A stretch of 64,000 nt of DNA from Gammaproteobacteria bacterium (GTDB lineage: Bacteria; Pseudomonadota; Gammaproteobacteria; Steroidobacterales; Steroidobacteraceae). Positions 1 to 64,000 of this stretch are shown here, piece after piece. Below the pieces are notes generated by a model. The model did no database searches and was not told the origin of the DNA. It saw only the letters and a program-made list of their open reading frames with translations. Every line of letters starts with the position of its first letter. Positions within the stretch are counted from its first letter, which is position 1. Location: positions 4,113 to 68,112 of the forward strand of contig JANLTW010000160.1 of NCBI GenBank assembly GCA_031363155.1, written 5' to 3'. Both the position numbers and the translations under genes were made by a program.

Positions 1-3000
1 ACCTAACACACCGCCGCGCTCGCTGATGGATTCAAACTCGCGGCACACGGCCTCTTCCACCATGTCGGTCAGGTAGTCAATCATGTAGGAACCCTGCCAG
101 GGATTCTGGGTCGCGTTCAATCCCAGTTCGCGATTGATGATCAGCTGGATCGCGACCGCGCGCCGCACGCTTTCTTCGGTCGGCGTGGTCAGCGCTTCAT
201 CAAAGGCATTGGTGTGCAGGGAATTGCAGTTGTCGAACAACGCGTACAAGGCCTGCAGCGTGGTGCGGATATCGTTGAACTGGATCTCGCGCGCGTGCAG
301 GCTGCGGCCCGAGGTCTGGATGTGATATTTCAGCATCTGGCTGCGCGCGCTGGCGCCGTAGCGTTCACGCATCGCGCGCGCCCAGATGCGCCGCGCGACC
401 CGGCCAATCACCGCATACTCGGCGTCCATGCCATTCGAGAAGAAAAAGCTCAGGTTGGCAGCGAAGTCATCGATCTGCATGCCGCGTGCGAGGTAGTACT
501 CGACGATGGTGAAGCCGTTCGAGAGCGTAAAGGCCAGCTGGCTGATCGGATTGGCGCCAGCCTCGGCGATGTGGTAGCCGGATATCGATACCGAGTAGAA
601 ATTGCGCACGTTGTGGTCGATGAAATACTGCTGCACGTCACCCATCAGTCGCATGGCAAATTCGGTGGAGAAAATGCAGGTGTTCTGCGCCTGATCCTCC
701 TTGAGGATGTCCGCCTGCACGGTGCCGCGCGCCAGACTCTGCGCTGCGGCGGCAATCTTGCGGTACTCGGCTGCGCTCAGCAGTTCCTGGCCGTCGACGA
801 CAATGCCCACCAGCTGATCCGAACTCAGGCCTAACAAACCAAGGCCGAGACCGTCATGACCCTCGGGCAGCTCGCCCACGTAGCTCGCGCTCGGGATGCC
901 GGCCGCCTGCTGCTGTGCACGCAACTGGTCGATATGCCGCGCGGCGCGCGGCCAGCGGCCCTCGCTACGCAGAAACCGCTCGACCCGCTGATCGATGGCG
1001 GTGTTCATGAACATCGCGAGCAGCATTGGTGCCGGGCCGTTGATGGTCATCGACACGGAGGTGTTCGGCGCGCACAGGTCGAAACCCGAATAGAGTTTCT
1101 TCATATCATCCAGCGTCGCGATGCTGACGCCGGAATTGCCGGTGCGGCCGTAGATGTCCGGACGCAGGTCCGGGTCCTCGCCATACAGCGTGGTCGAATC
1201 GAATGCGGTCGACAGGCGCGTGGCGTCGGCGTCGCGAGCTAACAAATGAAAGCGGCGATTGGTGCGCTCGGGCGTGCCTTCGCCGGCAAACATGCGCGCG
1301 GGGTCTTCGGCCTCGCGGCGATACGGATAGACGCCGGCAGTGTAGGGATAGGCGCCCGGCAGATTCTCGTTGCCGAGGAAGCGCAGGATGTCGCCCAGGT
1401 CCGTGAGCCGCGGCGCGGCAATTTTCGGCACCTTGTTGCGGCTCAGGGTCTCGAGGTAGTTGTCGCCGCGCACCTCTTTGCCGCGCACCACGTAGCTGTA
1501 TTGCGCCTCGGTGATCGCCTTGATCCGCGCCGGCCATTCCCGCAGCTGCGCCACGCCCCCGGCGCCGACCGCATCCAGCGCCCGGTGGTAGGCGAGCCGC
1601 AGCGCCTGCCACGCCGCTTCGGACTTGCCGCTCTCGAGCACGGCGGCGGGATAGCGATCCAACAAAGCCGGCAATTCGGCATCGCCCAAGACCTGCAGGG
1701 CGCGATGCAGGCTTTGCGCCTCGCTGGCCGCCTTGGCCGCTTGCTCCAGCTCCGTACGGGTAGCGCGGACCACGGCGGCAATGTCAGCCAGGTAGCGGCC
1801 GCGATTCTCAGGGATAAGCGCAGTGCGGCCGATCTCCGCGGTCGTGGCCGGCGCCACCTTGGAGATCGCAGCGCTCAGCCAGTTCCCGGTAGTACCGGCA
1901 TTGGCGTCGAGGCGCGCACACAGGGCTGCGAACAGGCGATTGACGCCCGGATCGTTGAACCGGCTGGCAATGGTCGGGTACACCGGCACATCGCTGTCGG
2001 CAATTTTCATGCGCTGCGGGTGATTGCGCCGCCATTGCTTGCGCACATCGCGCAGCGCGTCCGCGGCGCCGCGTTTTTCAAATTTGTTGAGCACCACCAG
2101 ATCGGCGAAATCGAGCATGTCGATCTTCTCGAGCTGGCTCGCGGCGCCATAGTCGGCGGTCATCACATAGGTGGAAATGTCCACCAGGTCGACAATTTCC
2201 GTGTCGCTCTGGCCAATGCCCGCGGTCTCCACCAGGATCAGATCGAAGCCCGCCTGCTGATAGAGCTCGATCACGTCCTTCAGCACCACACTGGTCGCGA
2301 GATTCTGGCGCCGTGTCGCCAGTGAGCGCATGAACACGCTGGAATTCGACAGGCTGTTCATGCGAATGCGATCGCCTAACAAGGCGCCGCCCGAACGACG
2401 GCGGGTCGGATCCACGGCGACCACGGCAATTTTCCGCTCCGGGTACGCACGAATCAGCCGCTGCAGCAGTTCGTCGGTGAGCGATGACTTGCCGGCGCCG
2501 CCGGTGCCGGTGATACCGACCACCGGCGCGCGCGCCACCGGCCGCGCCAGTGCCTTGCGCAGGGCCTCGGTCCCGGCCCCCTGCTGGCCCGCCTCGCCTT
2601 CCAGCATCGTGATGCAGCGCGCCAGCTGGCGATGCTCGCCGGCGTTGAGTGGCGCCATCGCAAATGCCGGCCGGCGCGCGGCCCGCACCCGTCGCAACAC
2701 ATCGTTGATCATGCCCTGCAGACCTAACAAGCGGCCATCTTCCGGCGTGTATATTTTTTCGACGCCGTGGTGTTCCAGCGCCGCTATCTCCTGCGGCGCG
2801 ATCGTGCCGCCGCCGCCGACGATCACGCGTATGTGCTCGCAGCCTTCGGCGCGCAAGGTATCGACCATGTAGGCAAAATATTCGTTATGGCCGCCCTGGT
2901 AGGAACTGACCGCGACCGCATCGGCGTCTTCCTGGATCGCCGCGCGCACGATGTCGGCCACCGAGCGGTTGTGCCCGAGGTGCACGACCTCGGCGCCGCC

Positions 3001-3141
3001 CGACTGCAGCAGCCGCCGGATCATGTTGATTGCCGCATCATGGCCGTCAAACAGCGATGCCGCGGTGACAAAGCGCAGCGGCGCTTGGGGCTCGGCGGCC
3101 GTAATTGCTGACTGTGATTGCGCTTTCGAGGGACTGGCCAT
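1..3141 (-). CDS. icmF: Fused isobutyryl-CoA mutase (IcmF-type: B12-binding domain + MeaB-like GTPase + mutase barrel). The C-terminus is cut by the window edge.
   Basis: My own minus-strand translation from the ATG (complement of 3139-3141) gives MASPSKAQ..PLRFVTAASLFDGHDAAINMIRR (B12-binding domain), the P-loop GITGTGGAGKSSL, ..RRFHLLARD.., and ..ISERGGVLG at position 1. It is absent from the ORF track because it runs off the left edge without a stop. Confidence 0.85.
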   Translation of the reverse strand, partial: MASPSKAQSQSAITAAEPQAPLRFVTAASLFDGHDAAINMIRRLLQSGGAEVVHLGHNRSVADIVRAAIQEDADAVAVSSYQGGHNEYFAYMVDTLRAEGCEHIRVIVGGGGTIAPQEIAALEHHGVEKIYTPEDGRLLGLQGMINDVLRRVRAARRPAFAMAPLNAGEHRQLARCITMLEGEAGQQGAGTEALRKALARPVARAPVVGITGTGGAGKSSLTDELLQRLIRAYPERKIAVVAVDPTRRRSGGALLGDRIRMNSLSNSSVFMRSLATRRQNLATSVVLKDVIELYQQAGFDLILVETAGIGQSDTEIVDLVDISTYVMTADYGAASQLEKIDMLDFADLVVLNKFEKRGAADALRDVRKQWRRNHPQRMKIADSDVPVYPTIASRFNDPGVNRLFAALCARLDANAGTTGNWLSAAISKVAPATTAEIGRTALIPENRGRYLADIAAVVRATRTELEQAAKAASEAQSLHRALQVLGDAELPALLDRYPAAVLESGKSEAAWQALRLAYHRALDAVGAGGVAQLREWPARIKAITEAQYSYVVRGKEVRGDNYLETLSRNKVPKIAAPRLTDLGDILRFLGNENLPGAYPYTAGVYPYRREAEDPARMFAGEGTPERTNRRFHLLARDADATRLSTAFDSTTLYGEDPDLRPDIYGRTGNSGVSIATLDDMKKLYSGFDLCAPNTSVSMTINGPAPMLLAMFMNTAIDQRVERFLRSEGRWPRAARHIDQLRAQQQAAGIPSASYVGELPEGHDGLGLGLLGLSSDQLVGIVVDGQELLSAAEYRKIAAAAQSLARGTVQADILKEDQAQNTCIFSTEFAMRLMGDVQQYFIDHNVRNFYSVSISGYHIAEAGANPISQLAFTLSNGFTIVEYYLARGMQIDDFAANLSFFFSNGMDAEYAVIGRVARRIWARAMRERYGASARSQMLKYHIQTSGRSLHAREIQFNDIRTTLQALYALFDNCNSLHTNAFDEALTTPTEESVRRAVAIQLIINRELGLNATQNPWQGSYMIDYLTDMVEEAVCREFESISERGGVLG

Positions 3142-3165
3142 ATTGCAATTTACCTGCACGTAACT

Positions 3166-3187
3166 TAAATTACTCGTCAGTAAATTA
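3166..3187. promoter_or_regulatory. Candidate TetR-type operator in the divergent icmF/tetR intergenic region
   Basis: The sequence TAAATTACT-CGTC-AGTAAATTA is a 9-bp inverted repeat (8/9 matching) with a 4-bp spacer. It lies in a 63-bp AT-rich gap between two divergent start codons. Confidence 0.45.
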
Positions 3188-6817: not shown

Positions 6818-7948
6818 ATGGTGTCGGAATCCCGCCCTCGCCGCTCCGGCCTGCGCAAGCGTTATGACGCGGAACTTGCGACGCAGGGATTCAGCGCTGA
6901 CCCGGCGCAGCAGCAGGCGCTGGAAAAACTGGAGCTGCTGCGCGCGCGGCTGATCCGCGCGGAGCGCGACCAGGCCGACACGGTCCAGAAGTTGTTACGC
7001 AGTTTGCGTGTCAGCAAACAGGCTGCTGCGGTGCGCGGCGCCTACCTGTGGGGCGGCGTGGGCCGCGGCAAGACCTGGCTCATGGAGCTTTTCTTTCAAA
7101 GCCTGCCTTTTGAACGCCGCCAGCGCAGCCACTTTCACCGCTTCATGCAGCAAGTACATGCGGGGCTCAAGCGGCACGCAAAAAAAACCGATCCGCTCGC
7201 GCCGGTTGCCGCGGATATTGCACAAAAGTGCCGGGTGCTGTGTCTCGATGAACTGTTCATCAGTGATATCACCGACGCCATGCTGCTCGGCAGCCTGTTT
7301 CAGCGCCTGACTGCCAACGGCGTGACCCTGGTTTTCACCTCTAACGTGCCGCCACAGGGCCTGTACCGCAACGGCCTGCAGCGCCAGCGTTTCCTGCCGG
7401 CCATCGCCCACCTGGAGCAGCAGCTGGACGTGGTCGCGGTCGATGGCGGCTTCGACTATCGACTGCGCCAGCTGACCAAGGCGCGCATCTACCTCGACTC
7501 GGCGGATGCCGCAACGCCGGCTGCGCTGCGGATAATTTATGACGATCTAGCGGATGACGAAGCCGACGACGGCACCAGACAGATCACCGTGCTGGGGCGC
7601 AAGATCCCGATAGTCCGCGAAAGTGACAATGTCATCTGGTTCGAGTTTGCTGCGATCTGCGGCGGGCCGCGTGGCCAGACCGATTACATCGAGATCGCGC
7701 GTGAGTACCAGTCGGTGCTGGTGGCTGACATCCCGATGCTGACGGCGGCCGATGACAATGACGCGCGCCGCTGCATCGCACTGGTGGACGAGTTCTATGA
7801 TCGCGGCGTGAAACTGATCGTGTCCGCGGCCGCGCCGCCAGCCGCACTGTATCGCGGCGAGCGCCTCAAATTCGAATTCGAACGCGCTGCGAGCCGCCTG
7901 GTCGAAATGCAGACCAAGCGCTATCTCGCCAGGCCGCACCTCACCTGA
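6818..7948 (+). CDS. zapE: AFG1/ZapE family ATPase
   Basis: 376-aa ORF with the Walker A motif LWGGVGRGKTWLM and a Walker B-like LCLDELFISD. Confidence 0.8.
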   Translation: MVSESRPRRSGLRKRYDAELATQGFSADPAQQQALEKLELLRARLIRAERDQADTVQKLLRSLRVSKQAAAVRGAYLWGGVGRGKTWLMELFFQSLPFERRQRSHFHRFMQQVHAGLKRHAKKTDPLAPVAADIAQKCRVLCLDELFISDITDAMLLGSLFQRLTANGVTLVFTSNVPPQGLYRNGLQRQRFLPAIAHLEQQLDVVAVDGGFDYRLRQLTKARIYLDSADAATPAALRIIYDDLADDEADDGTRQITVLGRKIPIVRESDNVIWFEFAAICGGPRGQTDYIEIAREYQSVLVADIPMLTAADDNDARRCIALVDEFYDRGVKLIVSAAAPPAALYRGERLKFEFERAASRLVEMQTKRYLARPHLT

Positions 7949-8176: not shown

Positions 8177-11100
8177 GTGTCGCAAAGCGTACCCAAGGCC
8201 CGACTGAGTCTGATCGAGAAAATCGTGGCCGCCGCCCCGGCGCGCGATCGCGATGCCAGCAGCGCCGCATTCCTGCGCGCGTACTTCCGCGGCGTCGGCG
8301 ACATTGATCTCGCGGAACGTGCCGCGAAGCTGCTCCGGTCGATTGCGTTAGCTCATCGCCACCTGGGGGCCAGGCGACGGCGCGGCACGCCACTGGTCCG
8401 CGTGTTCAATCCCGCGCAGAAGCTGGATGGTTTTGAATCCCAGGGCACGATTGTTTTTGTCATCGCCGACAACATGCCGTTCCTGCTGGACTCGATCAAT
8501 ATTGTCCTGGCGGCGGCAGCCGCCGGCGTCAACTTTATCGCACACCCGGTGTTCAGCGCGCAGCGCGACGCCAGCGGGCGCTGCCGATCGCTGCTGTTAG
8601 CAGATCCGAAGGACGGCAAGGTGCAGGAGTCCTGGCAGATGTTCGAAATCGATCGGCAGGAGTCGGCCGCGCATTGCCAGGCCTTGCAGGATTCGATCAC
8701 CAAATCACTGCGTGACGTGCGTGTTGCGGTCGCCGACTGGCGCGCGATTCGCGCCAGGATCCGTGCAATCTCCGCGGGCCTGGCGGCCTCACCGCCGCGG
8801 CGCACAGCGGCTGTAGAGACGCGGGAAGCGTGCGCGCTGCTCGACTGGATGGAAGGCGAACACTTCATTTTTCTGGGCTACCGGCACTATCAGCTGCGGC
8901 GCGGCAGCGAAATCGACCTGCTGCTCCCGACCAGCAAGAGCGGCCTCGGCATACTGCGCAATGACTCGGCGCGCGGTCGCGGCGCTACCGCGCCTAACAA
9001 ATTGGCCGGAACCATGCGCGCGCTGGCGCGCGATCATTCGGTTTTGGTGCTGACCAAGGCCAATTCCACCTCGACTGTACACCGCGGCACTTACCTGGAC
9101 TATGTCGCCGTCAAGGAGTTCGATGCGACGGGCGAGCCCTGTGGCGAACACCGCTTTCTGGGCCTGTGGACGTCGACGGCGTATTTCGCGAGCCCCGGCG
9201 AAATTCCGGTTCTGCGCCGCAAAGTGCAACAGGTCATCCAGCACTTTGGGCTCGACCCGGCGGGTCACGATGCCAAGGCCGTGTCAGCTGTCATGGAAAC
9301 CTATCCGCGCGACGAACTGTTTCAGGCGACGACCGCGGAGCTGGTCGATATCGCGCGCGGCGTGGTCAACCTGTACGAGCGCCGCCAGACGCGCCTCATG
9401 ATGCGCCGCGATCCCTTCGGCCGATTCTGGTCCTGCATGGTCTATGTGCCGCGCGACCGCTATACGACCGATGTGCGCCTGCGTATTGAAAAACTGATCC
9501 TGACGCGTTTTGGCGGCACGCACGTCGAAACACAGGTGCAGATTTCCGACACCAGCCACGCGCGCCTGCATGTCGTCGTCAGGCTCGCGGTCGCGGATCG
9601 CCCAGCGCCCGACTTCGGCACACTGGAACATGACATCGCCCGGGCCGCCATGACCTGGGATGACCGCTTGCGCGAGGCCTTGCTGGCCAGACATGAGCCC
9701 ACCGCAGCGCTTACGCTGGCGCAGCGCTACAGGAAAAGCTTTCCGGTCGCCTATCAGGATGAAGTCGAGCCAGTCGATTCGCTGGATGACATCGCGGCTC
9801 TGGAAACCTTGTGTGCCAGCCCGGAAGCCCTGCACCTCAGCCTGCATCGACCACCGGGCGCGCCGCTCAACCGGGCGCATCTGAAGCTCGTCAAACTCGG
9901 CGATCCGATCCCGATCTCGGACTTGCTGCCGATGATGGAGAACTTCGGTCTGCGCGTGCTGGCCGAACGGCCCTATTCGCTGCGCGACGTCGCCGGCGGA
10001 CCCGCCTGTGTGCAGGACTTTGAATTCGATTCGCGCTCCGGCACCGGCCTTGACATCGATGCGGTGGCAGCGCGCTTCAGCGAGGGCTTTCTCGCCGCCT
10101 GGCGCGGCGACGTGGAGAACGACGGCTTCAACCGCCTGTTGTTAGGCGCGGGCCTGAACGCGCGCGAGATCGTGATCCTGCGATCGTATTGCCGTTATCT
10201 GCTGCAGACCGGCCTGCCGTTCAGCCAGGCCAACATGGAGCGCGTGCTGGCGACACATGCGGGCATCGCGCGGCAGTTTCTCGAATTGTTCTCCGCGCAG
10301 TTCGCGCCGCAGTTCCGCGGCGCACGCGCGCCGGCCATCAAGTCCACCATCGCCGCCATCCGCAAGGGGCTGGATGGCGTGACCAGCGCTGACGACGATC
10401 GGATACTGCGTGCTTATCTCGCGGTCATTGCCGCAACGCTGCGTACCAATTTCTACCAGGCAGATGCCCGGGGTGCTGCCAAGTCCTATGTCGTATTCAA
10501 GTTCGATCCGCGCCAGATCCCGGATTTGCCTGCACCGCGGCCCAAATTCGAGATTTTCGTGTACTCGCCGCGCGTCGAGGGCGTGCACCTGCGCATGGGA
10601 CAGGTCGCACGCGGCGGCATACGCTGGTCGGATCGCCGCGAAGATTTCCGCACCGAAGTGTTAGGGCTGATGAAGGCGCAGAACGTCAAGAACACATTGA
10701 TCGTGCCAGTGGGCGCCAAAGGCGGCTTCTTTCCGAAACAAATGCCGGCCGGGGCCAATCGCGATGCGGTCCAGGCGGAAGGCATCGCCAGCTACCAGAT
10801 CTTCATCCGCGGACTGCTCGACGTGACCGACAATATCGTCAACGGCAAGATCGTCCCACCGCAATCGGTGGTACGGCGCGACCCCGACGATCCCTACCTG
10901 GTCGTTGCCGCCGACAAGGGCACCGCCACCTTCTCCGACATTGCTAACAAGATCTCGGTTGATCACGGCTTCTGGCTGGGGGATGCGTTCGCCTCCGGCG
11001 GCTCCGCGGGTTACGACCACAAGAAAATGGGCATCACGGCGCGCGGCGCCTGGGAATGCGTGAAACGCCATTTTCGGGAAATGGGCATCGATACGCAGGA

Positions 11101-12997
11101 GCAGGACTTCACCGTGGCCGGCGTCGGCGACATGGCCGGCGACGTTTTCGGCAACGGCATGCTGTTGTCGAAACACATCTGCCTGCAGGCGGCCTTCAAC
11201 CACCAGCATATTTTCCTCGACCCGGCACCGGACGCCGCGCGCTCGTTTGCCGAACGCGAGCGACTCTTCAACCTGCCCAGATCCAGCTGGGATGACTACG
11301 ACCGCAAGCTGCTATCGCGCGGCGGCGGCATCTTTGCGCGCAGTGCCAAGACTATTCCCCTGTCCAACGAGGCGCAGGTCATGTTAGGTCTGGGGGCCAG
11401 CGCGGCGCCCAACGTTGTGATCCACGGCATTCTCGGCATGCAAGTCGACTTGCTGTGGAACGGCGGCATCGGCACCTATGTCAAGGCCAGCACTGAAAGT
11501 CATCAGGATGCCCGCGACCGCGCCAATGATGCGGTGCGCATCGACGGCGGCAAGCTGCGTGCCCGCGTCGTTGGCGAGGGCGGCAACCTCGGCTTTTCGC
11601 AGCGTGGCCGGGTCGAGTACGCACTGGCCGGTGGTCGCATCAACACCGACTTCATCGACAACTCGGCCGGCGTAAACACCTCGGACCTGGAGGTCAATCT
11701 CAAGATCCTGCTGAGCCCCGAGGAACGCGCCGGCCGGTTGAAACGTCGCGATCGCGACTCTTTGTTAGCCAGGATGACCGACGAGGTCGCGGCGCAGGTG
11801 CTGCGCAACAATTACCTGCAGAGCCAGGCGATCAGCACGCTGGAAGCGCAGGCGACACGGCGCATGGCCGAACTGCAGTACCTGATTCGCAGCATGGAGC
11901 GGGCCGGAGAACTCGATCGTGCGCTCGAGTACCTGCCCGACGATGAGAGCATCGCCGAGCGCCGCAAGCAGGGACTCGGATTCACGCGCCCGGAGCTCGC
12001 GGTTTTGTTAGCCTACAGCAAGATCTCGCTCAACAACCAGCTGCTGGATTCAGACGTTCCCGAGGACAGCTACCTTGGCAACGAACTGGAGCGTTATTTC
12101 GCCGACCCGATACGCCGACGGTTTGCGCGCGCCATCGGCAAACACCGCCTGCGCCGTGAAATCATCGCGACCGCGGCGACTAACAGCCTGGTGAATCGCA
12201 TGGGACCGAGTTTTGTGCTGCGTGCGCAGGACGATACCGGCGCGACGCCGGCGGAAATTACCCGCGCCTACTCGATCGCGCGCGAGGCCTTTGGCATGCG
12301 CGCGCAATGGGCCCGGATCGAGGAGCTGGATAACCGCATTCCGGCGCCGGTGCAGTACGGCATGATGGCCGAGACCAGCCGCATACTGCGCCACAGTACC
12401 TACTGGCTGCTGCGCGAGCGGCGCAGCGAGCTCGCCATCGAGGCGCGTGTCAGGGAATTTGCCGAGCCTCTGGCACGTCTCGCCCGGACGCTCGACAAGT
12501 CGCTGGCCGGTATCGATCGCGAGCACCAGCAACAGTCATTGGCGATACTGCACAAGGCCGGAGTGCCAAAAGAGCTCGCTGGTTTCATGGCCAATATCGA
12601 GGCGCTCGGCTCGGCCTGGGACATTGCCGAACTGGCCGCCCAAAACCACGGCAAGATCGAGGACACCGCCAGCATCTGGTTCCGTTGCGGCGCCGGTCTG
12701 GGCCTCGACTGGTTGCGCTCCGAAATCGAACGCATGCCAGTGGATGGCCAGTGGCAGGCGGTGGCGCGCTCGGGTTTGCGGGACGCCGCAGCCAAGCTGC
12801 AACGCAGCCTGAGCGGTCGCGCGCTCACGCATCGGTCCCGCGGCACTGCGGATCAGCGAATCGCCAGTTGGCTAACAAGCCTGGGCGCGTCACTGACCGT
12901 ATGGCAGCGCACGCTGAAGGACATACGCGGCAGCGGCAACGCTGATTTCGCGACCTTGTCGGTGGGCGTGGACGCATTGCGCAGACTCGCTGGCTGA
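8177..12997 (+). CDS. gdhB: NAD-specific glutamate dehydrogenase, large (about 180 kDa) class
   Basis: A continuous ORF of more than 1600 aa. Its central catalytic region ([48 protein letters not shown]) is characteristic of the large NAD-GDH family. I prefer the GTG at 8177 (GGGAG lies 8 nt upstream) over the track start at 8111. Confidence 0.85.
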   Translation: [1606 protein letters not shown]

Positions 12998-20392: not shown

Positions 20393-20395
20393 TTA

Positions 20396-20592: not shown

Positions 20593-22434
20593 ATGTCAGC
20601 GCCACGCCCAATTCGCAATATCGCCATCATCGCTCACGTCGATCATGGCAAGACCACGCTGGTCGACTGCCTGCTGAAGCAGTCGGGTACCTTTGCGGCG
20701 CATCAACGCATCGCCGAACGGGTCATGGATTCCAATGACATCGAACGCGAGCGCGGCATCACGATCCTCGCCAAGAACTGTGCCGTCGAGTACGGCGACA
20801 CGCGTATCAACATCGTCGACACCCCGGGGCACGCGGACTTCGGCGGCGAAGTCGAACGCGTGCTGTCGATGGTGGACGGCGTGCTGCTGGTCGTCGATGC
20901 GGTCGAAGGACCGATGCCGCAAACCCGTTTTGTCACGCGCAAGGCGCTGGCGTTAGGTCACAAGGCCATCGTCGTGGTCAACAAGGTCGATCGCCCGGGT
21001 GCGCGGCCGGACTGGGTCGTGGACCGGACATTCGAGCTGTTCGACAAGCTCGGCGCCACGGATGCGCAGCTCGATTTTCAGATCATCTATGCATCGGCGC
21101 TCGAGGGCTGGGCCACCAGCAGCCTCGCGACCAGCCCTCGGCCTAACAACATGGAAGCGCTGTTCAACGCCGTGATCGAGCACGTGCCACCGCCGCCGGC
21201 CGAGCCCGATGCGCCGCTGCAGCTGCAGATCTCGACACTGGATTACAACTCGTATGTCGGCCGCATCGGCATCGGCCGCATCCGCCGCGGTACGCTGCGT
21301 CCCGGCATGAATGTCAGCCTGCGTAACGGCGCTGCGGATCTTGGCAGCGGCAAGGTCGCGCAGGTCCTCACTTTCCATGGACTCGAGCGCAAGAGCGTGG
21401 ATGAAGCCAGTGCCGGCGACATCGTCGCGGTCACTGGCATTGAAGATGTAACCATCGGCCTTACGCTCTGCGATCCGCTGGCGCCGTCCGGCCTGCCGCC
21501 GATCCTGGTGGATGAACCCACGCTGGTCATGACATTCCAGGTCAACACCTCGCCGCTCGCGGGCCGCGAGGGCAAATTCGTCACCAGCCGCCAGATTCGC
21601 GACCGCCTGTACCGCGAACTTGAAAGCAATGTCGCACTACGGGTCGAAGATACGGCGGACGCCGACGTATTCCGCGTATCCGGCCGCGGCGAACTGCACC
21701 TGACGATCCTGATCGAAAACATGCGGCGCGAAGGCTACGAGGTCGCGGTCGGCAAACCGCAGGTGCTGCGTCGCGTAATCGACGGCGTGCTGCAGGAACC
21801 GTTCGAAGCGCTGACTGTGGACCTCGCCGAAGAACACCAGGGCGCGGTCATGCAGGAACTGGGCACGCGGCGCGGTGAGTTGTTAGACATGTCGGTCGAC
21901 GGCCAGGGCCGGGCGCGGCTCGACTATCGTGTGCCGGCCCGCGGCCTGATCGGCTTTCACGCTGAATTCCTCACCATGACGCGCGGCACCGGACTCGCCA
22001 GCCACATCTTCGACGGCTATGGCATCGTCAAGGGCGAGATCCCCGAGCGCCACAACGGCGTGCTGATCAGCAACGAAAAGGGCGAAGCGGTCGCCTACTC
22101 GCTGTTCACGTTGCAGGAACGCGGCCGCCTGTTCGTCGAGCACGGTTCCAAGGTCTACGAAGGCATGATCATCGGGATTCACAGCCGCGACAACGACCTG
22201 GTCGTGAATCCGATCAAGACCAAGAAACTCACCAACGTGCGTGCGGCGGGCAAAGACGATGCATTGTTGCTGACGACGCCGATTCCGCTGACGCTGGAAT
22301 ACGCCGTGGAATTCATCAATGATGACGAACTGGTCGAGGTAACGCCGGAATCCATCCGCCTGCGCAAGCGCCAGCTGCTGGAAGCGGATCGCAAACGGAC
22401 CGCGCGCGCTGCGGATTCGGCAATCGCTGTCTGA
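20593..22434 (+). CDS. bipA: Translational GTPase BipA/TypA
   Basis: 613-aa [39 protein letters not shown] and [15 protein letters not shown] are near-identical to the E. coli BipA motifs. Confidence 0.95.
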
Positions 22435-28229: not shown

Positions 28230-28330
28230 TTGTTAGCTCCGGAATAATCGATTACACACTCTTGGGCATCGGCGTCAGGCAAAGTGATGAAAAAGGGTCC
28301 AACAGGCAATGGACCGGCCGGCCGGGAGAT

Positions 28331-34076: not shown

Positions 34077-34093
34077 ATCAAAGAACTAACAAT

Positions 34094-39722: not shown

Positions 39723-40724
39723 CTAACCAGCCGGTAATCCCAGCCATTCGTAGCCATCCGGCGCCCGGAACCGGCAGGCCGATTCGCCAAATTCGTCGCG
39801 CCCGGCACCTAACGACCGCGCGCCCAGACCCACGAGCCAGCCGCAGCCGGCATCGGCCGCGCCGAACCCCGCGTGCCGCAGGCTGTAGAGGTTGTAACCG
39901 TCGTCACCGGGCGCGGTCTGAAAGCCGGTACCGGCGCCAGGTTCCAGCACCAACGCGCGCAGCCGCCCGGGCAACTGACCGGGACCGGGCAGCGATGCCG
40001 GGTCGTCGAAGTCGTGCTCCACCAGGGCCTCGCCCGGATAGAGTGGCAACAATTGCGTGGCGACACTCTGCGGATCGTATTGCACGCGCCTTTGGCTCAT
40101 TGCCTTGAATCCCAGCCGCGAGTAGAACGAAAGTCTGCCGGCCTGGGCCGCGACAACCACGATACCCGCATGTGCAGCTTCACTGGCGCCTAACAAACTG
40201 GCCCGGTCCGGCGTGCCGTATCGCGGCACATCGATTCCGTGGCGCACCATCAGTACGTGGCGAAAATGCGCTGTCAGCACCGCATGATTGATCGAAGCCG
40301 AGCTGGCATCGACGCTGTGAATAACCGGCCCCGCGATGTTGGTGCCGGCGAGCGATTTCTGCAGATACCGCCCCCAAACCAATGCCGGCGTGATGTCATG
40401 GGTTCGGTGTACGGTCCAGCGGCTGCCCGCGGTTCGCAAGGGAGCTGATCCGAGACCCGGACCCGCGGCTTCGCTCCATTGCTGCAAACGAATCAGGCCG
40501 CTGCTGGCACCGCCGTGGCCCAGACGGGCCGCCTGCAGCGCGCGCTGCCGGCCATACAACGTGTGCGCCGCGTCGGCCTCCAGATGCCCCTGACTTACAA
40601 CCGCGTAACCGAAGGCGTGCCAATGCGCGATCGCAACCCTGAGGTCGGGCACGCCGACGATCACTTCATGTATGCCACCGTGCAATCCAGTTGCGTGCGA
40701 CCCCATGACCATGATGTATATCAT
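39723..40724 (-). CDS. Hypothetical protein, possibly with a VOC/glyoxalase-type fold
   Basis: 333-aa ORF with good coding appearance. The function guess is weak (IHEVIVGVPDLRVAIAHWHAFGY resembles a VOC beta-alpha-beta start). Confidence 0.4.
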   Translation of the reverse strand: MIYIMVMGSHATGLHGGIHEVIVGVPDLRVAIAHWHAFGYAVVSQGHLEADAAHTLYGRQRALQAARLGHGGASSGLIRLQQWSEAAGPGLGSAPLRTAGSRWTVHRTHDITPALVWGRYLQKSLAGTNIAGPVIHSVDASSASINHAVLTAHFRHVLMVRHGIDVPRYGTPDRASLLGASEAAHAGIVVVAAQAGRLSFYSRLGFKAMSQRRVQYDPQSVATQLLPLYPGEALVEHDFDDPASLPGPGQLPGRLRALVLEPGAGTGFQTAPGDDGYNLYSLRHAGFGAADAGCGWLVGLGARSLGAGRDEFGESACRFRAPDGYEWLGLPAG

Positions 40725-42572: not shown

Positions 42573-42573
42573 G

Positions 42574-56048: not shown

Positions 56049-56170
56049 GCTCTGCTCCTAGTACTACTGTGTCATTAAATTAATGGATTGCATGCTGCGT
56101 CGACAACACGGACAGATGGGCAGAGATCTAGCGAGGAGCGTGGCGAGTTCGAGGCGCAATGGTCAATAGG

Positions 56171-56180
56171 CTAACCTAAC
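56171..56180 (+). repeat. Tandem double copy of the dispersed CTAAC word
   Basis: CTAACCTAAC, within GGCTAACCTAACGA, lies in the islet's left intergenic region. Confidence 0.9.
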
Positions 56181-56245
56181 GAAAGGCAGCATAGTTTTCC
56201 AGCTGCTTGCAGGCCCCGCGCGGATCTCGAAACACTCTTTTAAAC

Positions 56246-56267
56246 AGCGCCTCAAGTCGCAGGCGCT
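56246..56267 (-). terminator. Weak candidate intrinsic terminator after the acyltransferase gene
   Basis: A perfect 7-bp stem AGCGCCT / AGGCGCT with an 8-nt loop lies about 10 nt past the stop at 56278. On the minus strand it is followed only by GTTTAAAAG, a poor U-tract. Confidence 0.35.
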
Positions 56268-56277
56268 CTGACACCTG

Positions 56278-57009
56278 TTAGTTGTACCGCAACCTATCCT
56301 CGGATTCCTGCATTAAGGCCATGATTGCTGCCTGTACATTCAGCCGGTGCAACTCTATATCGTCCACAGTAACAGGTGATGGAATCGTATACGGTTTGCC
56401 GATAGCCAAAACAATCCGGCTAAACGGCTTCGGAATCATGAACTTATCCCAGTTATTGAGGTACCAGGCTCTGTCGGCTGCGCACCCAATTGGCAGAATC
56501 GGTATGCGCCCAGTCAGTGCTGTTACGACAACACCGGCTTTAAATTCGTGTTTGGGCCCACGGGGTCCATCGGCCGTCGTAACGATCGAGTATCCATTCT
56601 TCACCATGCCGAGCATGTCCCGCATCGCCAAAGTGGCGCTATTCTGATTGGCTGATCCGCGAGCAACCTTACCGCCCCAGGCTCGCGCAATGCGGGCGGT
56701 TACCTCTGCATCGACTGACGCGGACATCAGGAAGCACATTTTGAAGCCGCGTCGTAGCCATTGCCGAAAAAGCATATTGCAGACTAGTTGATGCTGATGC
56801 CAGTAGGACGGCGCACATACAGCATCGCCGTTGATAAACGATTCAGCGTATCCCGCGCCAATAACCGCCTTAATTCGGTACGTAGACGTCAACAGGCGAA
56901 ACACTGCGCGGACCAGATATGCACCCAGGACATAACCCAGCCGGCGTTGCGGAGTCATATGTCGGCTTGACCGCGAACTGCGTCGGGACTCGATCGCTTG
57001 GTCTTCCAT
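56278..57009 (-). CDS. LPLAT-superfamily acyltransferase, DUF374-like
   Basis: The track ORF is trimmed to MEDQAIES... The motifs SYWHQHQ, SASVDAEV..ARAWGGKVARGS and TTADGPRGP match what I remember of DUF374 / lysophospholipid acyltransferase-like proteins. The start is uncertain (57009, or the later MTPQRR). Confidence 0.55.
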   Translation of the reverse strand: MEDQAIESRRSSRSSRHMTPQRRLGYVLGAYLVRAVFRLLTSTYRIKAVIGAGYAESFINGDAVCAPSYWHQHQLVCNMLFRQWLRRGFKMCFLMSASVDAEVTARIARAWGGKVARGSANQNSATLAMRDMLGMVKNGYSIVTTADGPRGPKHEFKAGVVVTALTGRIPILPIGCAADRAWYLNNWDKFMIPKPFSRIVLAIGKPYTIPSPVTVDDIELHRLNVQAAIMALMQESEDRLRYN

Positions 57010-57133
57010 TGGCGCGTACCCTCTTGTTGCCCTTTGCCATTGGCTGGGTGCCTGCACTCGCAGTATCACTTCGGCTGGAGTAATAATACAGCTGAGCTGC
57101 ACTACGACCGCAGGACACCAACTAATCACACTA

Positions 57134-58441
57134 ATGATTTCAGTTGACTCTCATAGTCTCAGGAGCCCTCCGGGTCCGAATTACCCTGTGCAACTGAATG
57201 TCGACGCCAAAACCTTGGCAACACTGCAAGAACTCCGAGCCGAGTACGGCGATACGATTCGCTTGGTCAAACCGAACAGGCGCGTTGCATACTTTGTAAA
57301 CGAAGCTGCGGACGTGCGAAACATTCTCGTCAAGCACCATTCCACCTATATCAAGGGCCCAGGTTTTGAACGAATAAAAATGTTGCTCGGCAATGGATTG
57401 ATAGTCAGCGATGGCGATATCTGGCGCCGTTCGCGACGCATGATTCAACCATCTTTCAGTCGGCAACATATGCATGAAATGATCAAGGTGATGTTTCGTT
57501 GTTGCATCAAAATCTTGGACAGGTGGAGTGCCATTGCTTCTCAAGCGGGCGCGATAAACATTACGGAAGAAACCAGCGACTTCGCGCTCGAGGTAATTCT
57601 GATTAGTATCCTCGGATCTGATTACGAATCTCGATGTTTCGCGAATGGTGAAAATCCTTTCGCCTTTGTACGCAGCGACACGACGCGCGAAATAAGCGCC
57701 GTGCCGAAATTTCACGAACTGCGAATGATTCTGCTCGAAATTATCGAGACGCGGCGCAGCGGCAAGCAATCATTCGACTTTCTTTCAATGTACATGAAAG
57801 CAACGGATAAAGATGGCGTCGGATATTCGGACAAGGAATTGGTTGATGAACTGTTGATACTGATTGTCGCTGGATACGAAACCGCGGCGAGCACGCTCAA
57901 CTGGATCTGGTTTCTGGTCACCAAACATCCCGTTGTCGAGCAACAATTGCTTAATGAATTTGCGCGGTTGTCGCCGCACAGTTTGGCAGTCAATCCGGAT
58001 GACCTCGCCAACATGACGTATACGCAGCAGGTAATTGATGAAACGTTGCGGCTGTACCCGCCAGCCTGGCTGCTAACGCGCCGCGCGCAACACGATGACA
58101 AGTTGTTGAACTATGATGTTCCGCCAGGCACAGATATCTACATTTCTCCATATATCTTGCAACGAATGGATAAGCACTGGCCCCACCCCCTTCGTTTCGA
58201 TCCAACCAGATTTGCCGCCACCAGGACTCACAGCAACAGCCGACCGTATTTCCCGTTCTCACTGGGTCCGCGTCGCTGCATCGGTGAATATTTTTCATTT
58301 CTCGAAATGAAGACTCACCTCGGATTGTTGCTGCCTAGATTTCGCATGACTTTGATGGATGATGGAGACCCTGAGCCTGAAATGGGAATCCTTATGCGCT
58401 CGGCTCGCGACATCATGCTTCGACCGACCCTACGCAACTAG
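57134..58441 (+). CDS. Cytochrome P450, fatty-acid-hydroxylase-like
   Basis: 435-aa ORF with the I-helix AGYETAASTL, the ExxR motif ETLRLYPP and the heme-Cys loop FSLGPRRCIGEYF. Confidence 0.88.
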   Translation: MISVDSHSLRSPPGPNYPVQLNVDAKTLATLQELRAEYGDTIRLVKPNRRVAYFVNEAADVRNILVKHHSTYIKGPGFERIKMLLGNGLIVSDGDIWRRSRRMIQPSFSRQHMHEMIKVMFRCCIKILDRWSAIASQAGAINITEETSDFALEVILISILGSDYESRCFANGENPFAFVRSDTTREISAVPKFHELRMILLEIIETRRSGKQSFDFLSMYMKATDKDGVGYSDKELVDELLILIVAGYETAASTLNWIWFLVTKHPVVEQQLLNEFARLSPHSLAVNPDDLANMTYTQQVIDETLRLYPPAWLLTRRAQHDDKLLNYDVPPGTDIYISPYILQRMDKHWPHPLRFDPTRFAATRTHSNSRPYFPFSLGPRRCIGEYFSFLEMKTHLGLLLPRFRMTLMDDGDPEPEMGILMRSARDIMLRPTLRN

Positions 58442-58445
58442 CCAA

Positions 58446-60383
58446 ATGCAACTCTATGCAACGTTAGCTGATTTGCTTGCCGATGCGCGCGGCAGCGATC
58501 GTAGCATTCGTTTTATTGACGGCGCAGACGACGAAAGTGTCGTGACATTTGCCGCACTATGGGATCAGGCGATCGGGTTCCTTGGCTCGCTGCAACAGCG
58601 TGGACTGACATGCGGCGATGAAATGGTCATTTTCACCAGGTCGAACGAAAAGTTCGTCGTCGCGTTCTGGGCAGCGATACTTGGCGGTTTGGTGCCGGTG
58701 CCTGTTGCGGTGGGCATCGGTGACGAGCACCGTCTCAAGCTGTTTCGCATTCTTCTTCAGTTGCAACGCGTAGCACTTTGCACGGATTCTGATTTGCTGG
58801 ATAGATTGCTAGAATTATCGAGAAGTCAGTCATGTGACGAAGTCGCGCGCATCCTCGACAAACTAACAGTATTGACTAGTTCTGTTAGTAACGGCGGCAT
58901 GGGCATGCCTTGCAAGGTGTCGCCAGACGATATTGCATTTATTCAGTATTCGTCGGGCTCAACCAGAGAACCGAAGGGTGTTTGCCTGTCGCATCGCAAT
59001 CTGTGTATCAACATTCGAGCTCTCGTTGAACGCGTGGAATGGCACGATCAAGATTCCGCCCTGAGCTGGATGCCTTTGACCCATGACATGGGTCTGATTG
59101 CATACCACCTTTGCCCGTTAGCTGCCGGCATGAATCATGCGATAATGGATACCGGTCTTTTTGTGCGACGTCCATTGCTGTGGATGATCAAGACTGACCA
59201 GCTCCGTGCTACGCAACTTTGCTCACCAAACTTTGGCTACAAACATTTCCTGAGTATTTTCGCGCGCAAAGTTTTGCCAGATCTTGACCTTTCGTGCGTA
59301 ACCCTGATAACAAATGGCGCGGAGCCAATATCGTTTGCGCTATCCGAAGCATTTCTCGACGCACTTGCACCATATGGTCTAAAAAAGAGTTCGATGTTTC
59401 CAGTATATGGACTTGCAGAAGCAACTATCGGGGTTGCCATGGCCAAGGTCGGCGATGAATTTTCCAAAATCATTGTGAATAGACACGCTCTGAAAATTGG
59501 TGATTCTTACGAATCTGTCGCCACAGACAATATTGACGCAGTTAGTTTCGTGAAAATTGGGAGTGCGATTCGTGATGTTCAATTGCGTATCGCCGATAAC
59601 GCGGACAGCGAACTAGACGCTGGCAAAGTTGGTCACGTCCAGGTGCTCGGGGCGAGCGTCGCCAGGCGAATCTATGGTGATGCTAGTGCGTGCGCCGATC
59701 TTTTCACAGGCGACGGCTGGCTGCGAACCGGAGACTGTGGCGTGATCGTCGACGGCAAACTCGTTGTTACGGGCCGTAGCAAGGACATTATCATCGTCAA
59801 CGGCCAGAACTACTATCCGCATGACATCGAGGAAATTGCCTCACGTGTTAGCGGACTCGATCTTGGCAAGGTTGTTGTCGCGGGCAGTAGATCGAGTGAC
59901 GGCGAGACTGAGGAATTGCTGGTATTCGTGCTCTACAGGCAAGACATCCAGACGTTTCCCCGTGTTGTCGAAGCCGTTCGCGCGTCAATTAGTGGGCAAA
60001 CAGGGCTCGCAGTCGATCATGTCATTCCCGTTTCCAAGATCCCAAAGACGACCAGTGGCAAAATTCAACGCGCAAAACTGTTGGATGCGTATCTCGATGG
60101 AGAATATGACGCAGCCCTGAGACAACTTTCGTTCATCATAATCCCGGCGGAGGTCGATGCGGATCCACGCGTTGCGGAACTCGAAACCATCGCCAAAGAG
60201 ATCGTAAAAACGCTCCCCATCGGACCCGACGTCAATCTCTTTGAGGCTGGACTCGATTCTCTGGAATTGACCGAAATTATTCTTGCCATTGAAGATCGGC
60301 ATCCAGGCAAATTCCAGGCTATTGATGTCTTCGATCATCCCACTTTGCGTGGTATTGCCGACTTCATAGCGCACCGGAACTAA
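58446..60383 (+). CDS. Fatty acyl-AMP ligase (adenylate-forming enzyme) fused to a C-terminal acyl/peptidyl carrier domain
   Basis: The track ORF is trimmed to the ATG at 58446, 4 nt after the P450 stop. The AMP-binding core is IQYSSGSTREPKGV, with GWLRTGD and the TSGKIQR Lys. The C-terminal GLDSLELTEIILAIE is a phosphopantetheine Ser motif. Confidence 0.8.
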   Translation: MQLYATLADLLADARGSDRSIRFIDGADDESVVTFAALWDQAIGFLGSLQQRGLTCGDEMVIFTRSNEKFVVAFWAAILGGLVPVPVAVGIGDEHRLKLFRILLQLQRVALCTDSDLLDRLLELSRSQSCDEVARILDKLTVLTSSVSNGGMGMPCKVSPDDIAFIQYSSGSTREPKGVCLSHRNLCINIRALVERVEWHDQDSALSWMPLTHDMGLIAYHLCPLAAGMNHAIMDTGLFVRRPLLWMIKTDQLRATQLCSPNFGYKHFLSIFARKVLPDLDLSCVTLITNGAEPISFALSEAFLDALAPYGLKKSSMFPVYGLAEATIGVAMAKVGDEFSKIIVNRHALKIGDSYESVATDNIDAVSFVKIGSAIRDVQLRIADNADSELDAGKVGHVQVLGASVARRIYGDASACADLFTGDGWLRTGDCGVIVDGKLVVTGRSKDIIIVNGQNYYPHDIEEIASRVSGLDLGKVVVAGSRSSDGETEELLVFVLYRQDIQTFPRVVEAVRASISGQTGLAVDHVIPVSKIPKTTSGKIQRAKLLDAYLDGEYDAALRQLSFIIIPAEVDADPRVAELETIAKEIVKTLPIGPDVNLFEAGLDSLELTEIILAIEDRHPGKFQAIDVFDHPTLRGIADFIAHRN

Positions 60384-60432
60384 TAGGGACAAAAGTGCGT
60401 CAGCAAGCGGGTCGATTCTAACCTGTGCTGTC

Positions 60433-60509
60433 TGGCGCGCCCTGACGGATTCGAACCGCCGACCCTCAGGTTCGAAGCCTGATGCTCTATCCAGCTGAGC
60501 TAAGGGCGC
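60433..60509 (-). tRNA. tRNA-Arg, anticodon UCG
   Basis: The minus strand folds by hand as GCGCCCU-UA-GCUC-AGCUGGAUA-GAGC-A-UCAGG-CUUCGAA-CCUGA-GGGUC-GGCGG-UUCGAAU-CCGUC-AGGGCGC-G-CCA. This is a cloverleaf with an encoded CCA. The backbone resembles E. coli tRNA-Arg. Confidence 0.9.
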
Positions 60510-62943: not shown

Positions 62944-62946
62944 ACC

Positions 62947-63987
62947 ATGAACGAAACCATCGTCCCATTCCCGCCTAACGCGCTGCGCGACCAGCTCGCC
63001 CGCCCGATGCACGACCTGCGCATCTCGGTCATGGATCGCTGCAATTTCCGCTGCCCGTATTGCATGCCGAAAGCGACGTTTCACGACGGCTATCGCTTTT
63101 TACGCTCGAGCGAGCGGCTCGATTTCCCGGAAATCCTGCGCCTCGCGCGCATCGCCACCCGGCTGGGGGTACGCAAGCTGCGGCTCACCGGCGGCGAGCC
63201 GCTGCTGCGGCCGAATCTGACCGACCTGATCGGCGACCTCAGCAGCCTGCCAGGCGTCGACGACGTCGCGCTGACGACCAACGGCGTTTTGTTAGCCAAG
63301 TACGCGACCGAATTGAGCGCCGCCGGCCTGAAGCGCGTGACCGTCAGCCTCGACAGCCTCGATCCCGGGGTGTTCCGCACCATGAACGGCGGACTCGGCG
63401 AAGTCGGCGACGTGCTGGCAGGCATCGAGGCCGCGCTGCGCGCCGGCCTCACGCCGATCAAGATCAACACGGTGGTGCAGAAAGGCGTCAACGAGCATAC
63501 GGTGCTGGATCTGCTCGCGCACTTCCGCGGCACCGAGGTCATCGTCCGCATGATCGAGTACATGGATGTCGGCAACCGCAACGACTGGCGCGCGGACCTG
63601 GTGCTGCCGTCGGCGCAGCTGCTCGAGCGCATCAACGCGCGCTGGCCGATCGTGCCGCAGGCCCGGCAGTATCGCGGCGAAGTGGCGGAACGCTACAGCT
63701 ATGCGGACGGCGCCGGCGAAGTCGGGTTCATCTCCTCGATTTCGCAGCCGTTCTGCGGCGATTGCGCGCGCGGCCGGCTGTCATCGGCCGGAGAGTTTTT
63801 CACCTGCCTGTTTGCCCAGAAAGGGTTCGACCTGCGCGGGCCGCTGCGCGGTGGCGCAAGCGACGCCGAGATCGAGGCGCTGTGGCGCGAGCTCTGGTCC
63901 GGTCGCCGGGACCGCTACAGCGAACTGCGTGCCTCGAATCGTGCTGCCCAGGCTAACAAAGTCGAAATGTTTCACATCGGCGGCTGA
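62947..63987 (+). CDS. moaA: GTP 3',8-cyclase (radical SAM)
   Basis: 346-aa ORF with LRISVMDRCNFRCPYCMP, LTGGEPLLR and the C-terminal CGDCARGRLSSAGEFFTCLF. Confidence 0.93.
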   Translation: MNETIVPFPPNALRDQLARPMHDLRISVMDRCNFRCPYCMPKATFHDGYRFLRSSERLDFPEILRLARIATRLGVRKLRLTGGEPLLRPNLTDLIGDLSSLPGVDDVALTTNGVLLAKYATELSAAGLKRVTVSLDSLDPGVFRTMNGGLGEVGDVLAGIEAALRAGLTPIKINTVVQKGVNEHTVLDLLAHFRGTEVIVRMIEYMDVGNRNDWRADLVLPSAQLLERINARWPIVPQARQYRGEVAERYSYADGAGEVGFISSISQPFCGDCARGRLSSAGEFFTCLFAQKGFDLRGPLRGGASDAEIEALWRELWSGRRDRYSELRASNRAAQANKVEMFHIGG

Positions 63988-64000
63988 CGATGGGCAGGCT

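Follow-up and report, generated by a model that had tools for sequence, protein, structure and literature searches.

A hyper-abundant CTAAC/GTTAG word in a Steroidobacteraceae genome and its likeness to DNA uptake sequences

The window analysed here is a 64-kb stretch of DNA with 62.8% G+C (64,000 nucleotides, positions 4,113 to 68,112 of contig JANLTW010000160.1, assembly GCA_031363155.1) from a gammaproteobacterium of the family Steroidobacteraceae, and throughout its length it carries a short asymmetric word, CTAAC on one strand and GTTAG on the other. The word is the invariant 5-bp core of a graded 9-bp site, R-S-CTAAC-R-A; the observation is real, and the excess survives every stricter null model that was applied. 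The word is a signal of duplex DNA, neither a repeat nor a codon effect. Because it shares published hallmarks of the DNA uptake sequences (DUS) of Neisseriaceae and the uptake signal sequences (USS) of Pasteurellaceae, the best-supported mechanism is that of an uptake-type word by which self DNA would be recognised and which biased transformation would spread; to this reading we assign a probability of about 0.45.

Abundance and shape of the word

When counted exactly on both strands, the + strand of the window contains 82 CTAAC and 64 GTTAG, giving 146 core copies or one per 0.44 kb, close to the roughly 80 and 60 estimated in a preliminary description of the same DNA. The core is extended to CTAACR in 139 of the 146 copies, to CTAACA in 104 (57 CTAACA and 47 TGTTAG) and to CTAACAA in 57 (34 CTAACAA and 23 TTGTTAG, where 34 and 22 had been estimated), so that the 7-mer occurs once per 1.1 kb. 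All ten example coordinates of that description proved correct, each 8-kb bin holds 14–22 core copies exactly as it had claimed, and the G or C said to stand nearly always on the CT side of the 7-mer is present in 52 of 57 copies. The zero-order expectation for the 7-mer, previously given as about one per strand, was computed as 1.6 and 1.2.

Stricter null models gave the same result. For CTAACA/TGTTAG, the 104 observed copies compare with 8 expected under a first-order and 24 under a third-order Markov model; synonymous codon shuffling of the coding DNA gave 9.3 ± 3.1 CTAACA against 92 observed; and the background of motif-less relatives from the same family predicts only 2.5 copies in the window (P about 1e-125). 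The over-representation typical of DUS and USS is therefore present, with 104 copies in 64 kb against 2.5–24 expected. The very large excess reported earlier holds for the 6-mers to 8-mers, or when measured against the relatives' background, but not for the bare 5-mer, which exceeds zero-order and Markov expectations only about 2–4-fold. A ranking of all words of k = 5–8 against Markov expectation places CTAACA and its extensions first at every k, and no other word is comparable; the earlier impression had been that no other AT-rich 7-mer recurs.

A position matrix of the copies confines the information to positions −2 to +6. The core is sharp, with CTAACA at 36 times and CTAACG at 12 times the family background and all other one-mismatch variants at 0.2–3.7 times. 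CTAACG is thus a genuine second form rather than one of the degenerate versions as which the remaining copies had been described, while the other one-mismatch variants are indeed not enriched. The 50-nt flanks of separate copies are unrelated (mean identity 0.28, maximum 0.57), which together with the matrix excludes the core of a longer repeat; as more than 90% of the copies lie in frame inside genes, membership among interspersed repeats of the repetitive extragenic palindrome (REP) or miniature inverted-repeat transposable element (MITE) type is also excluded. Almost all copies are found in ordinary genes whose open reading frames (ORFs) remain intact, such as a 1,628-aa ORF carrying 11 copies, and the motif-bearing genes include those for NAD-glutamate dehydrogenase, an IcmF-like mutase, thiolase, ETF-QO, BipA, a TonB-dependent receptor, the Arn lipid-A operon, ABC transporters and short-chain dehydrogenases/reductases. 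A eukaryotic intron branch point, of which CTAAC is the consensus, was considered and excluded by the intact bacterial ORFs and a third-position G+C content of about 0.75–0.8.

Within genes, the word is found mainly in two frames, NNG TTA GNN with the motif antisense (67 copies) and NCT AAC with the motif sense (38 copies), followed by CTA ACN (9 copies) and GTT AGN (6 copies); frames that would create a stop are occupied at just three places, 39723, 42573 and 55482, where the word forms the genuine stop codon of a gene. The bases around the core are biased in both main forms. For instance, 68 of the 94 TTA codons stand in the context G_G, compared with 3–28% of the other Leu codons; the residue following TTA is Gly or Ala in 63 cases and Val, Asp or Glu in 9, the corresponding numbers after other Leu codons being 400 and 296; the Gly codons following TTA are GGT:GGC 19:15 (elsewhere 19:87) and the Ala codons GCT:GCG 10:2 (elsewhere 24:134); the codon preceding TTA is TTG:CTG 27:6 (elsewhere 12:40); and the NNG codon preceding TTA has T or C as its middle base in 68 of 68 cases. 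Similarly, the base following NCT AAC is A or G in 37 of 38 copies. These flank preferences persist after conditioning on amino acid and codon usage and are alike in the NNG TTA GNN and NCT AAC forms. Since the two main forms are reverse complements of each other in unrelated frames, the signal resides in duplex DNA and not in translation.

The same evidence bears on the proposal that no DNA signal exists at all, the copies being by-products of a TTA codon or translation effect, of selection for off-frame stops, of mobile-repeat relics, or of an assembly or editing artefact. It is true that most copies involve a TTA codon and that one strand of the word contains TAA and the other strand TAG. 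However, a codon or tRNA effect on TTA is excluded by the extended flanks that the reverse-complement forms share, off-frame stop ("ambush") selection is excluded because the other TAA-containing one-mismatch variants are not enriched, and mobile repeats do not agree with the unrelated flanks. The sequence editing or watermarking raised in the preliminary description, and any assembly artefact, are ruled out by four independent assemblies from JGI, ENA and NCBI, in which the same word is the top k-mer and stands at orthologous codons within intact ORFs. Taken as a whole, this proposal has a negligible probability.

Codon cost, spacing and retention

The cost of the word to the genes that carry it can be read from accessible sites, that is, sites where the protein sequence permits the word by synonymous choice alone. 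In frames that need one rare codon, 19/21 accessible sites were occupied for NCT AAC AAN, 27/91 for TTG TTA GNN and 51/176 for NTG TTA GNN, while in frames that need two rare codons only 8/115 were occupied for CTA ACA and 6/161 for NNT GTT AGN, so that occupancy is 29–90% in the former and 4–7% in the latter. Both transcriptional orientations are filled at similar rates in the cheap frames, and control 6-mers differing by one base (TGTTGG, TGTTAC and AGTTAG) occupy about 0–2% of sites in well-populated frames. The word lifts the usage of TTA, the rarest Leu codon, about tenfold, from 0.3–0.6 to 3–5 per 1000 codons. The proteome is affected as well: the tripeptide [APTS]N[KN] occurs 1.06 times per 1000 residues compared with 0.33 in motif-less relatives (3.2-fold), and [LVM]L[GA] occurs 5.98 times compared with 4.01 (1.5-fold), while the reverse-order control of the latter is flat (4.02 versus 4.27, 0.94-fold). 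It has been reported that USS and DUS raise the tripeptides they encode about twofold and that their choice of frame follows codon quality (PMC2817400); the same frame bias and tripeptide enrichment are found here.

The copies are also spaced more evenly than chance allows. The coefficient of variation (CV) of the gaps is 0.66, whereas randomly placed copies give 0.99, and an equally even arrangement arose in 0 of 2000 simulations. Gaps of 300–600 bp, the mode, number 71 where 36 are expected, whereas gaps below 200 bp (24 versus 53 expected) and above 1 kb (8 versus 15 expected) are depleted. The evenness is replicated in three relatives, L081, L082 and L083, with CVs of 0.63–0.71. Uptake sequences are described as "significantly evenly spaced" and without orientation bias (PMC1939737). 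Even spacing is thus shared by the window and the three relatives, and the absence of orientation bias by five sequences, each examined as a local window: the strand counts in the window are 82:64 (p = 0.16) although its GC skew is uniformly negative, those at four other loci are 11:10, 23:20, 29:17 and 16:17, and neighbouring copies are oriented at random relative to each other.

This lack of polarity speaks against a strand-polar guide word of the Chi type (read by RecBCD or AddAB) or of the KOPS/SRS type (read by FtsK or SpoIIIE). The word here does resemble such elements in being short, over-represented, asymmetric and tolerated in coding DNA. However, the strand bias is not significant in the window or at the four other loci, the orientation of neighbouring copies is random, and Chi or KOPS sites are several times sparser. 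The poor fit noted in the preliminary description is borne out, and a guide word of this kind is very improbable.

The history of individual copies can be followed in four syntenic loci, obtained through glutamate dehydrogenase (GDH). Three carry CTAACA as the top 6-mer: L081 (JGI; GDH identity 92%) with about 2.0 CTAAC per kb, L082 (ENA; 91%) with 2.0 per kb, and L083 (NCBI GCA_965190265.1; 78%) with 2.4 per kb. The fourth, the outgroup L084 (GDH identity 64%), belongs to a 4.39-Mb genome of 66% GC and has the same gene order with a single copy in 24.8 kb. Codon-by-codon alignment shows that the residues are mostly the same in the outgroup but are written in ordinary codons, A-L-L-G-D for example being GCG CTG CTC GGT GAT there and GCC TTG TTA GGC GAT in the window, from which it follows that many copies arose by two synonymous substitutions. 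Other copies are accompanied by an amino-acid change, such as QPML to APNK, and the protein identity to the outgroup is 65% at motif codons compared with 69% overall.

Once present, copies are retained. Between the window and L083 (75% nucleotide identity), 78% of the motif copies are retained compared with 32–33% of control 5-mers in the same phase; between the window and L082 (89% nucleotide identity), the values are 82% and 61–62%. TTA codons are kept in 19 of 27 cases and other rare Leu codons in 1 of 17. Meanwhile, about one in five sites differs between the genomes of 89% identity, and gains and losses are lineage-specific. The force on each site is weak, while density and spacing are held constant.

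Several copies illustrate this behaviour. The commonest coding form, TTG TTA G (Leu-Leu-Gly), stands with the motif antisense at 10139..10145 (−) in the NAD-glutamate dehydrogenase gene (gdh position 1964) and recurs at this position in L081, L082 and L083, where the outgroup has CTG CTC GCG. The second form, CCT AAC AAA (Pro-Asn-Lys), stands with the motif sense at 8994..9000 (+; gdh 817) and is kept in all four members of the clade; the outgroup has CCC ATG CTG (P-M-L), so the creation of the motif involved an amino-acid change. A lineage-specific gain in a costly frame with two rare codons, CTA ACA AGC, lies at 12872..12878 (+; gdh 4695) and is found in the window only, L081 and L082 having CTG ACA AGC. 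The bipA copy CCT AAC AAC at 21143..21149 (+) is specific to the window and corresponds to CCC AAA AAC in L082, whose BipA is 97.6% identical, indicating recent turnover.

A sequence-specific bias in repair or gene conversion, in the manner of very-short-patch (VSP) repair, could in principle turn near-cognates into the word and leave the word itself functionless. The precursors CCAACA and CGAACA stand at 0.5 times the family background, a deficit about equal to the number of NCT AAC copies gained, and repair of this kind is known to favour CCWGG in E. coli and so to raise a word moderately above expectation. Against this, most copies needed a double substitution (CTG or CTC to TTA) or a change of residue, the enrichment is far above known VSP effects, and a repair bias alone leaves the regular spacing and the dependence of occupancy on codon cost unexplained. 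Such a bias is improbable as the origin of the word.

Mechanism, distribution among relatives and individual copies

Under an uptake-type mechanism, the recogniser would be a DNA-uptake receptor and the driving force would be biased transformation. A protein would recognise R-S-CTAAC-R-A in duplex DNA as a tag of self, and a surface DNA receptor of the competence machinery would prefer fragments that bear the word, so that uptake and recombination would be more frequent for these than for fragments lacking it. This weak but persistent bias (molecular drive), possibly together with selection for conspecific DNA, would spread new copies through the population, and copy number would settle once the bias was offset by the burden of rare codons and altered residues. 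Since little would be gained from a further copy on a fragment that already has one, the outcome would be one copy every 300–600 bp. The retention of copies together with turnover at about 20% of sites fits a weak force of this kind. The analogy with uptake sequences proposed in the preliminary description holds for the statistics, namely density, orientation independence, even spacing, frame bias, proteome footprint, an apparent restriction to a clade with a putative dialect, and retention.

Which relatives carry the word is relevant to this interpretation. The best BipA match to the window protein was 81% identical, and an unbiased scan for top k-mers was made over 80 BipA loci from genome representatives, in which the Neisseria and Eikenella loci served as positive controls and yielded DUS fragments. 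The scan flagged one more genome, the metagenome-assembled genome (MAG) BC3.85 (L003), where CTAACA is the top word (13 versus 1.4 expected) and 33 CTAAC occur in 21.8 kb. No synteny of the window with L003 was found beyond bipA itself, for which reason orthologous sites were compared at the GDH-linked loci. The copies in L003 occupy the same permitted frames with a looser 3' side, which looks like a dialect. The motif-bearing MAGs comprise GCA_965190265.1, BC3.85 (JAWLAH01) and the bins behind ERZ28573520 and JGI 3300049841. The word appears restricted to the clade of the window and L081–L083 plus L003, and in the BipA tree, built from a single gene, L003 is not sister to the window clade, motif-less lineages lying between them; this arrangement weakly suggests that the determinant was gained and lost, or transferred.

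Other words and intermediate states were noted among the same loci. L010 and L012, neighbours of L003 in the BipA tree, have a mild excess of CTAAC (0.41–0.46 per kb, compared with about 0–0.13 in other relatives at about 65–68% GC) and use TTA at 1.2–1.4 per 1000 codons, which could be a decaying or nascent form of the same trait. L012:5236-21503 (MAG GFS_4079, JAYTOI010000009.1), which is Steroidobacteraceae-like, carries a dispersed word of its own, likewise AT-rich and asymmetric, CTATCT(A)/(T)AGATAG, with 16 copies of the 6-mer against 1.8 and 9 of CTATCTA against 0.4 expected on the family background; its orientation switches, with CTATCT up to 9342 and mostly AGATAG after 13231, and it may be another dialect, though a weak one, or a word linked to the gene strand. 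L002 (MAG WB4_4_260, RFOD01000047.1; 59% GC), which is close to the window in the BipA tree, has CAAAGAA 13 times against 1.2 on the family background. The motif-less L084 and L007 have CGATCGC/CGATCGA with the HIP1-like core CGATCG at about 2–3 times the family background. In L068, an Accumulibacter MAG, the mutually unrelated ATTGAA, AATCCA and TCCTCA each occur about 30 times against about 5–6 expected, which points to a CRISPR, a tandem repeat or some other local array of repeats.

The main rival to an uptake-type word, somewhat less probable, is a use of the word inside the cell. It would be the recognition site of a lineage-specific DNA methyltransferase or of an abundant chromosomal protein, with selection keeping at least one site per few hundred bp, and it might serve strand discrimination or nicking for repair, self-marking against a nuclease, or nucleoid organisation. 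A core of 5–6 bp, asymmetric and containing adenine, is of the size typical of Type III, Type IIS and BREX-type methylation sites; the quasi-regular spacing, with short and long gaps depleted, is what a rule of one site within reach predicts; the patchy distribution in the BipA tree fits a mobile determinant; and copies are actively retained. On the other hand, the targets of restriction-modification are normally avoided and not enriched 15–40-fold, the graded 9-bp flanks look affinity-based and unlike a sharp enzyme site, and the turnover of about 20% of sites between close relatives argues for a weak force per site. To our knowledge, apart from the palindromic HIP1, there is no precedent for a methylation site saturated against codon bias. 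A further but weak argument against it is that no DNA-methyltransferase or nuclease gene was found among the proteins scanned in the window, which is about 1.5% of the genome as inferred from the 4.39-Mb relative. We consider it somewhat unlikely that the word is the footprint of an undescribed intracellular reader of R-S-CTAAC-R-A which needs a site every 300–600 bp and whose determinant has been gained and lost among Steroidobacteraceae; if it were, the selective demand for sites would have to be sufficient to reshape both codon usage and proteins.

Several observations weigh against an uptake-type word as well. The fully specified part is only 5–6 bp, compared with 9–12 bp for DUS and USS, so that poor discrimination against AT-rich foreign DNA is to be expected; the preliminary description had also remarked on a word shorter than known uptake sequences, and its specified length, with a 5-bp core, comes to about 12.5 bits. 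Only three close inverted pairs occur among the 146 copies, hence there is no terminator-like pairing, and the intergenic density is 1–2.5 times the coding density on very little intergenic DNA, without clear intergenic enrichment; both features are typical of DUS and are not required of USS. Most Steroidobacteraceae sampled lack such a word, and the trait is patchy in the BipA tree whereas DUS dialects track phylogeny. No pilin or competence genes were found among the proteins scanned in this small part of the genome, nor any restriction or recognisable DNA-methyltransferase gene, as had been stated before. The cyanobacterial HIP1 is an example of a hyper-abundant word with no known link to uptake. 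In addition, a 4.4-kb low-GC island (52% versus 63%) at 56051..60432, beside a tRNA-Arg(TCG) gene (60433-60509, −), encodes a DUF374 protein, a cytochrome P450 and an AMP-ligase with a carrier-protein (PCP) domain and is probably a horizontally acquired small biosynthetic cassette. It contains 11 CTAAC against 4.2 and 4 CTAACA against 1.2 expected (first-order Markov) and no 7-mer; the extended motif has thus not built up there, and the fold-excess of the core is much lower than in resident DNA, yet present. It has been reported that uptake sequences are scarce in newly acquired genes (PMC2817400).

The 82 CTAAC copies on the + strand start at 3, 831, 1239, 2376, 2724, 4106, 4889, 6525, 7341, 8994, 10944, 12180, 12872, 13554, 13773, 14966, 15837, 15975, 17172, 17691, 17945, 18200, 18718, 19816, 20415, 21143, 23606, 24278, 24458, 25561, 26107, 27616, 28900, 30037, 31149, 31593, 34086, 34857, 35844, 36402, 37617, 37773, 39191, 39723, 39809, 40190, 40911, 41936, 42428, 43931, 44627, 44645, 45071, 45370, 46543, 46942, 47204, 47639, 48055, 48384, 49043, 49376, 50182, 50614, 51326, 52140, 52357, 53568, 53871, 54432, 54842, 54986, 55482, 56171, 56176, 58073, 58863, 60418, 62264, 62761, 62975 and 63953. 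The 64 GTTAG copies on the + strand, where the motif lies on the − strand, start at 3558, 5174, 5527, 5731, 6220, 8347, 8596, 10141, 10660, 11383, 11764, 12007, 13876, 15493, 18800, 19269, 20501, 20952, 21882, 22556, 22898, 24069, 26937, 27157, 28232, 28634, 29322, 29559, 30120, 30639, 32742, 33048, 33425, 33956, 35276, 35998, 37258, 37417, 38205, 38712, 41272, 41626, 42009, 42573, 42928, 43641, 45690, 46068, 46589, 48942, 50657, 52895, 53221, 55770, 55878, 56277, 58463, 58884, 59117, 59541, 59847, 60782, 61345 and 63291.

Among the copies at gene borders, an intergenic one at 28230..28236 (−) lies between ribosome-binding site and start codon (GGAG CTAACAA ATG), and similar copies are found at 34086, 42573 and 53221. 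The − strand gene 39723-40724 ends in a TAG formed by the copy at 39723..39727 (+), the flavin reductase gene has its stop codon in the copy at 55482, and the TAA stop of 42574-43524 comes from the copy at 42573, with the start ATG of the following gene immediately after it. The close inverted pairs are a perfect one, CTAACAG-N12-CTGTTAG, at 58863..58888 in the AMP-ligase gene region of the low-GC island, and those at 46543/46589 and 50614/50657; a direct pair lies at 44627/44645, and a tandem CTAACCTAAC (56171-56180, starts 56171/56176) lies in intergenic DNA at the border of the island.

The only methyltransferase in the window, at 52115-53209 on the − strand beside an aminotransferase, is a class-I S-adenosylmethionine-dependent enzyme (Methyltransf_25/11/31 and MTS domains) of generic type without a DNA-methyltransferase domain. 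A two-gene block comprising a glyoxalase-family dioxygenase and a MarR regulator separates afg1 from gdh in L081:770-2324, L082:4968-6522 and L084:8330-9920 and is missing from the window (7948-8177) and L083, having probably been deleted independently or exchanged by recombination.

Comparison with known systems

Only two bacterial families, which are host-associated and culturable, are known to have sequence-specific self words at about one per kb, and much of the thinking on the evolution of transformation, molecular drive and species barriers rests on them; uptake sequences are so far described only for Neisseriaceae and Pasteurellaceae. In the literature library searched, no paper contained at least two of four forms of the word, and nothing tied Steroidobacter or its family to uptake sequences. 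If the uptake-type reading is true, this would be a third independent case and the phenomenon would be more general, extending to uncultured environmental (soil and freshwater) Gammaproteobacteria with an unrelated AT-rich word in a GC-rich genome. As the word opposes both base composition and codon bias, its cost is directly readable in the tenfold use of TTA and the altered tripeptides, and the case would offer an unusually clean natural experiment, with close relatives available that have and that lack the word. If the word is not related to uptake, it marks an unknown chromosome-wide recognition system. In practice, it offers a strong signature for binning and taxonomic assignment of the clade in metagenomes.

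Type III, Type IIS and BREX methylation sites are similar to the word in core size and asymmetry. They differ in being neutral or avoided, whereas the word here is enriched 15–40-fold, evenly spaced and furnished with graded flanks, which sets it apart from restriction-modification or BREX targets. Chi and KOPS are likewise short, over-represented, asymmetric and compatible with coding, but are strongly co-oriented with replication and several-fold rarer, and the word here has no polarity. HIP1 (GCGATCGC) of cyanobacteria is a hyper-abundant octamer, about one per kb, which is intragenic and conserved beyond expectation and whose function is unsettled. HIP1 is palindromic and overlaps known methyltransferase sites, while CTAAC/GTTAG is asymmetric and is not a member of this palindromic class.

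The USS of Pasteurellaceae share more with the word. They are mostly intragenic, prefer frames with better codons, enrich the tripeptides they encode, are evenly spaced, are indifferent to the direction of transcription and are subject to a weak force per site comparable to codon selection (PMC2817400; PMC1939737). USS differ in that they combine a 9-bp core with AT-rich segments on its flanks and occur in AT-rich genomes, while the word here opposes base composition and raises the rarest Leu codon about tenfold.

The DUS of Neisseriaceae, whose receptor is the minor pilin ComP, differ from the word in several respects: the latter is unrelated in sequence, is AT-rich in a 63% GC genome, has a shorter specified length (5-bp core, about 12.5 bits) where DUS have 10–12 bp, shows neither terminator-like inverted pairs nor clear intergenic enrichment, and is patchy within its family where DUS are family-wide. 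The likeness lies in hyper-abundant asymmetric words at about 1–2.5 per kb, with a short invariant core and graded flanks, no orientation bias, apparently lineage-specific dialects, tolerance in coding DNA and a tripeptide footprint. It has been reported that kingDUS reaches a density of up to about 2.5 per kb, and that DUS have an essential CTG core, flanking bases with a "distance-dependent gradual influence" and lineage dialects (PMC3630211); for DUS as for USS, the driving force is comparable to codon selection and orientation relative to transcription is irrelevant (PMC2817400).

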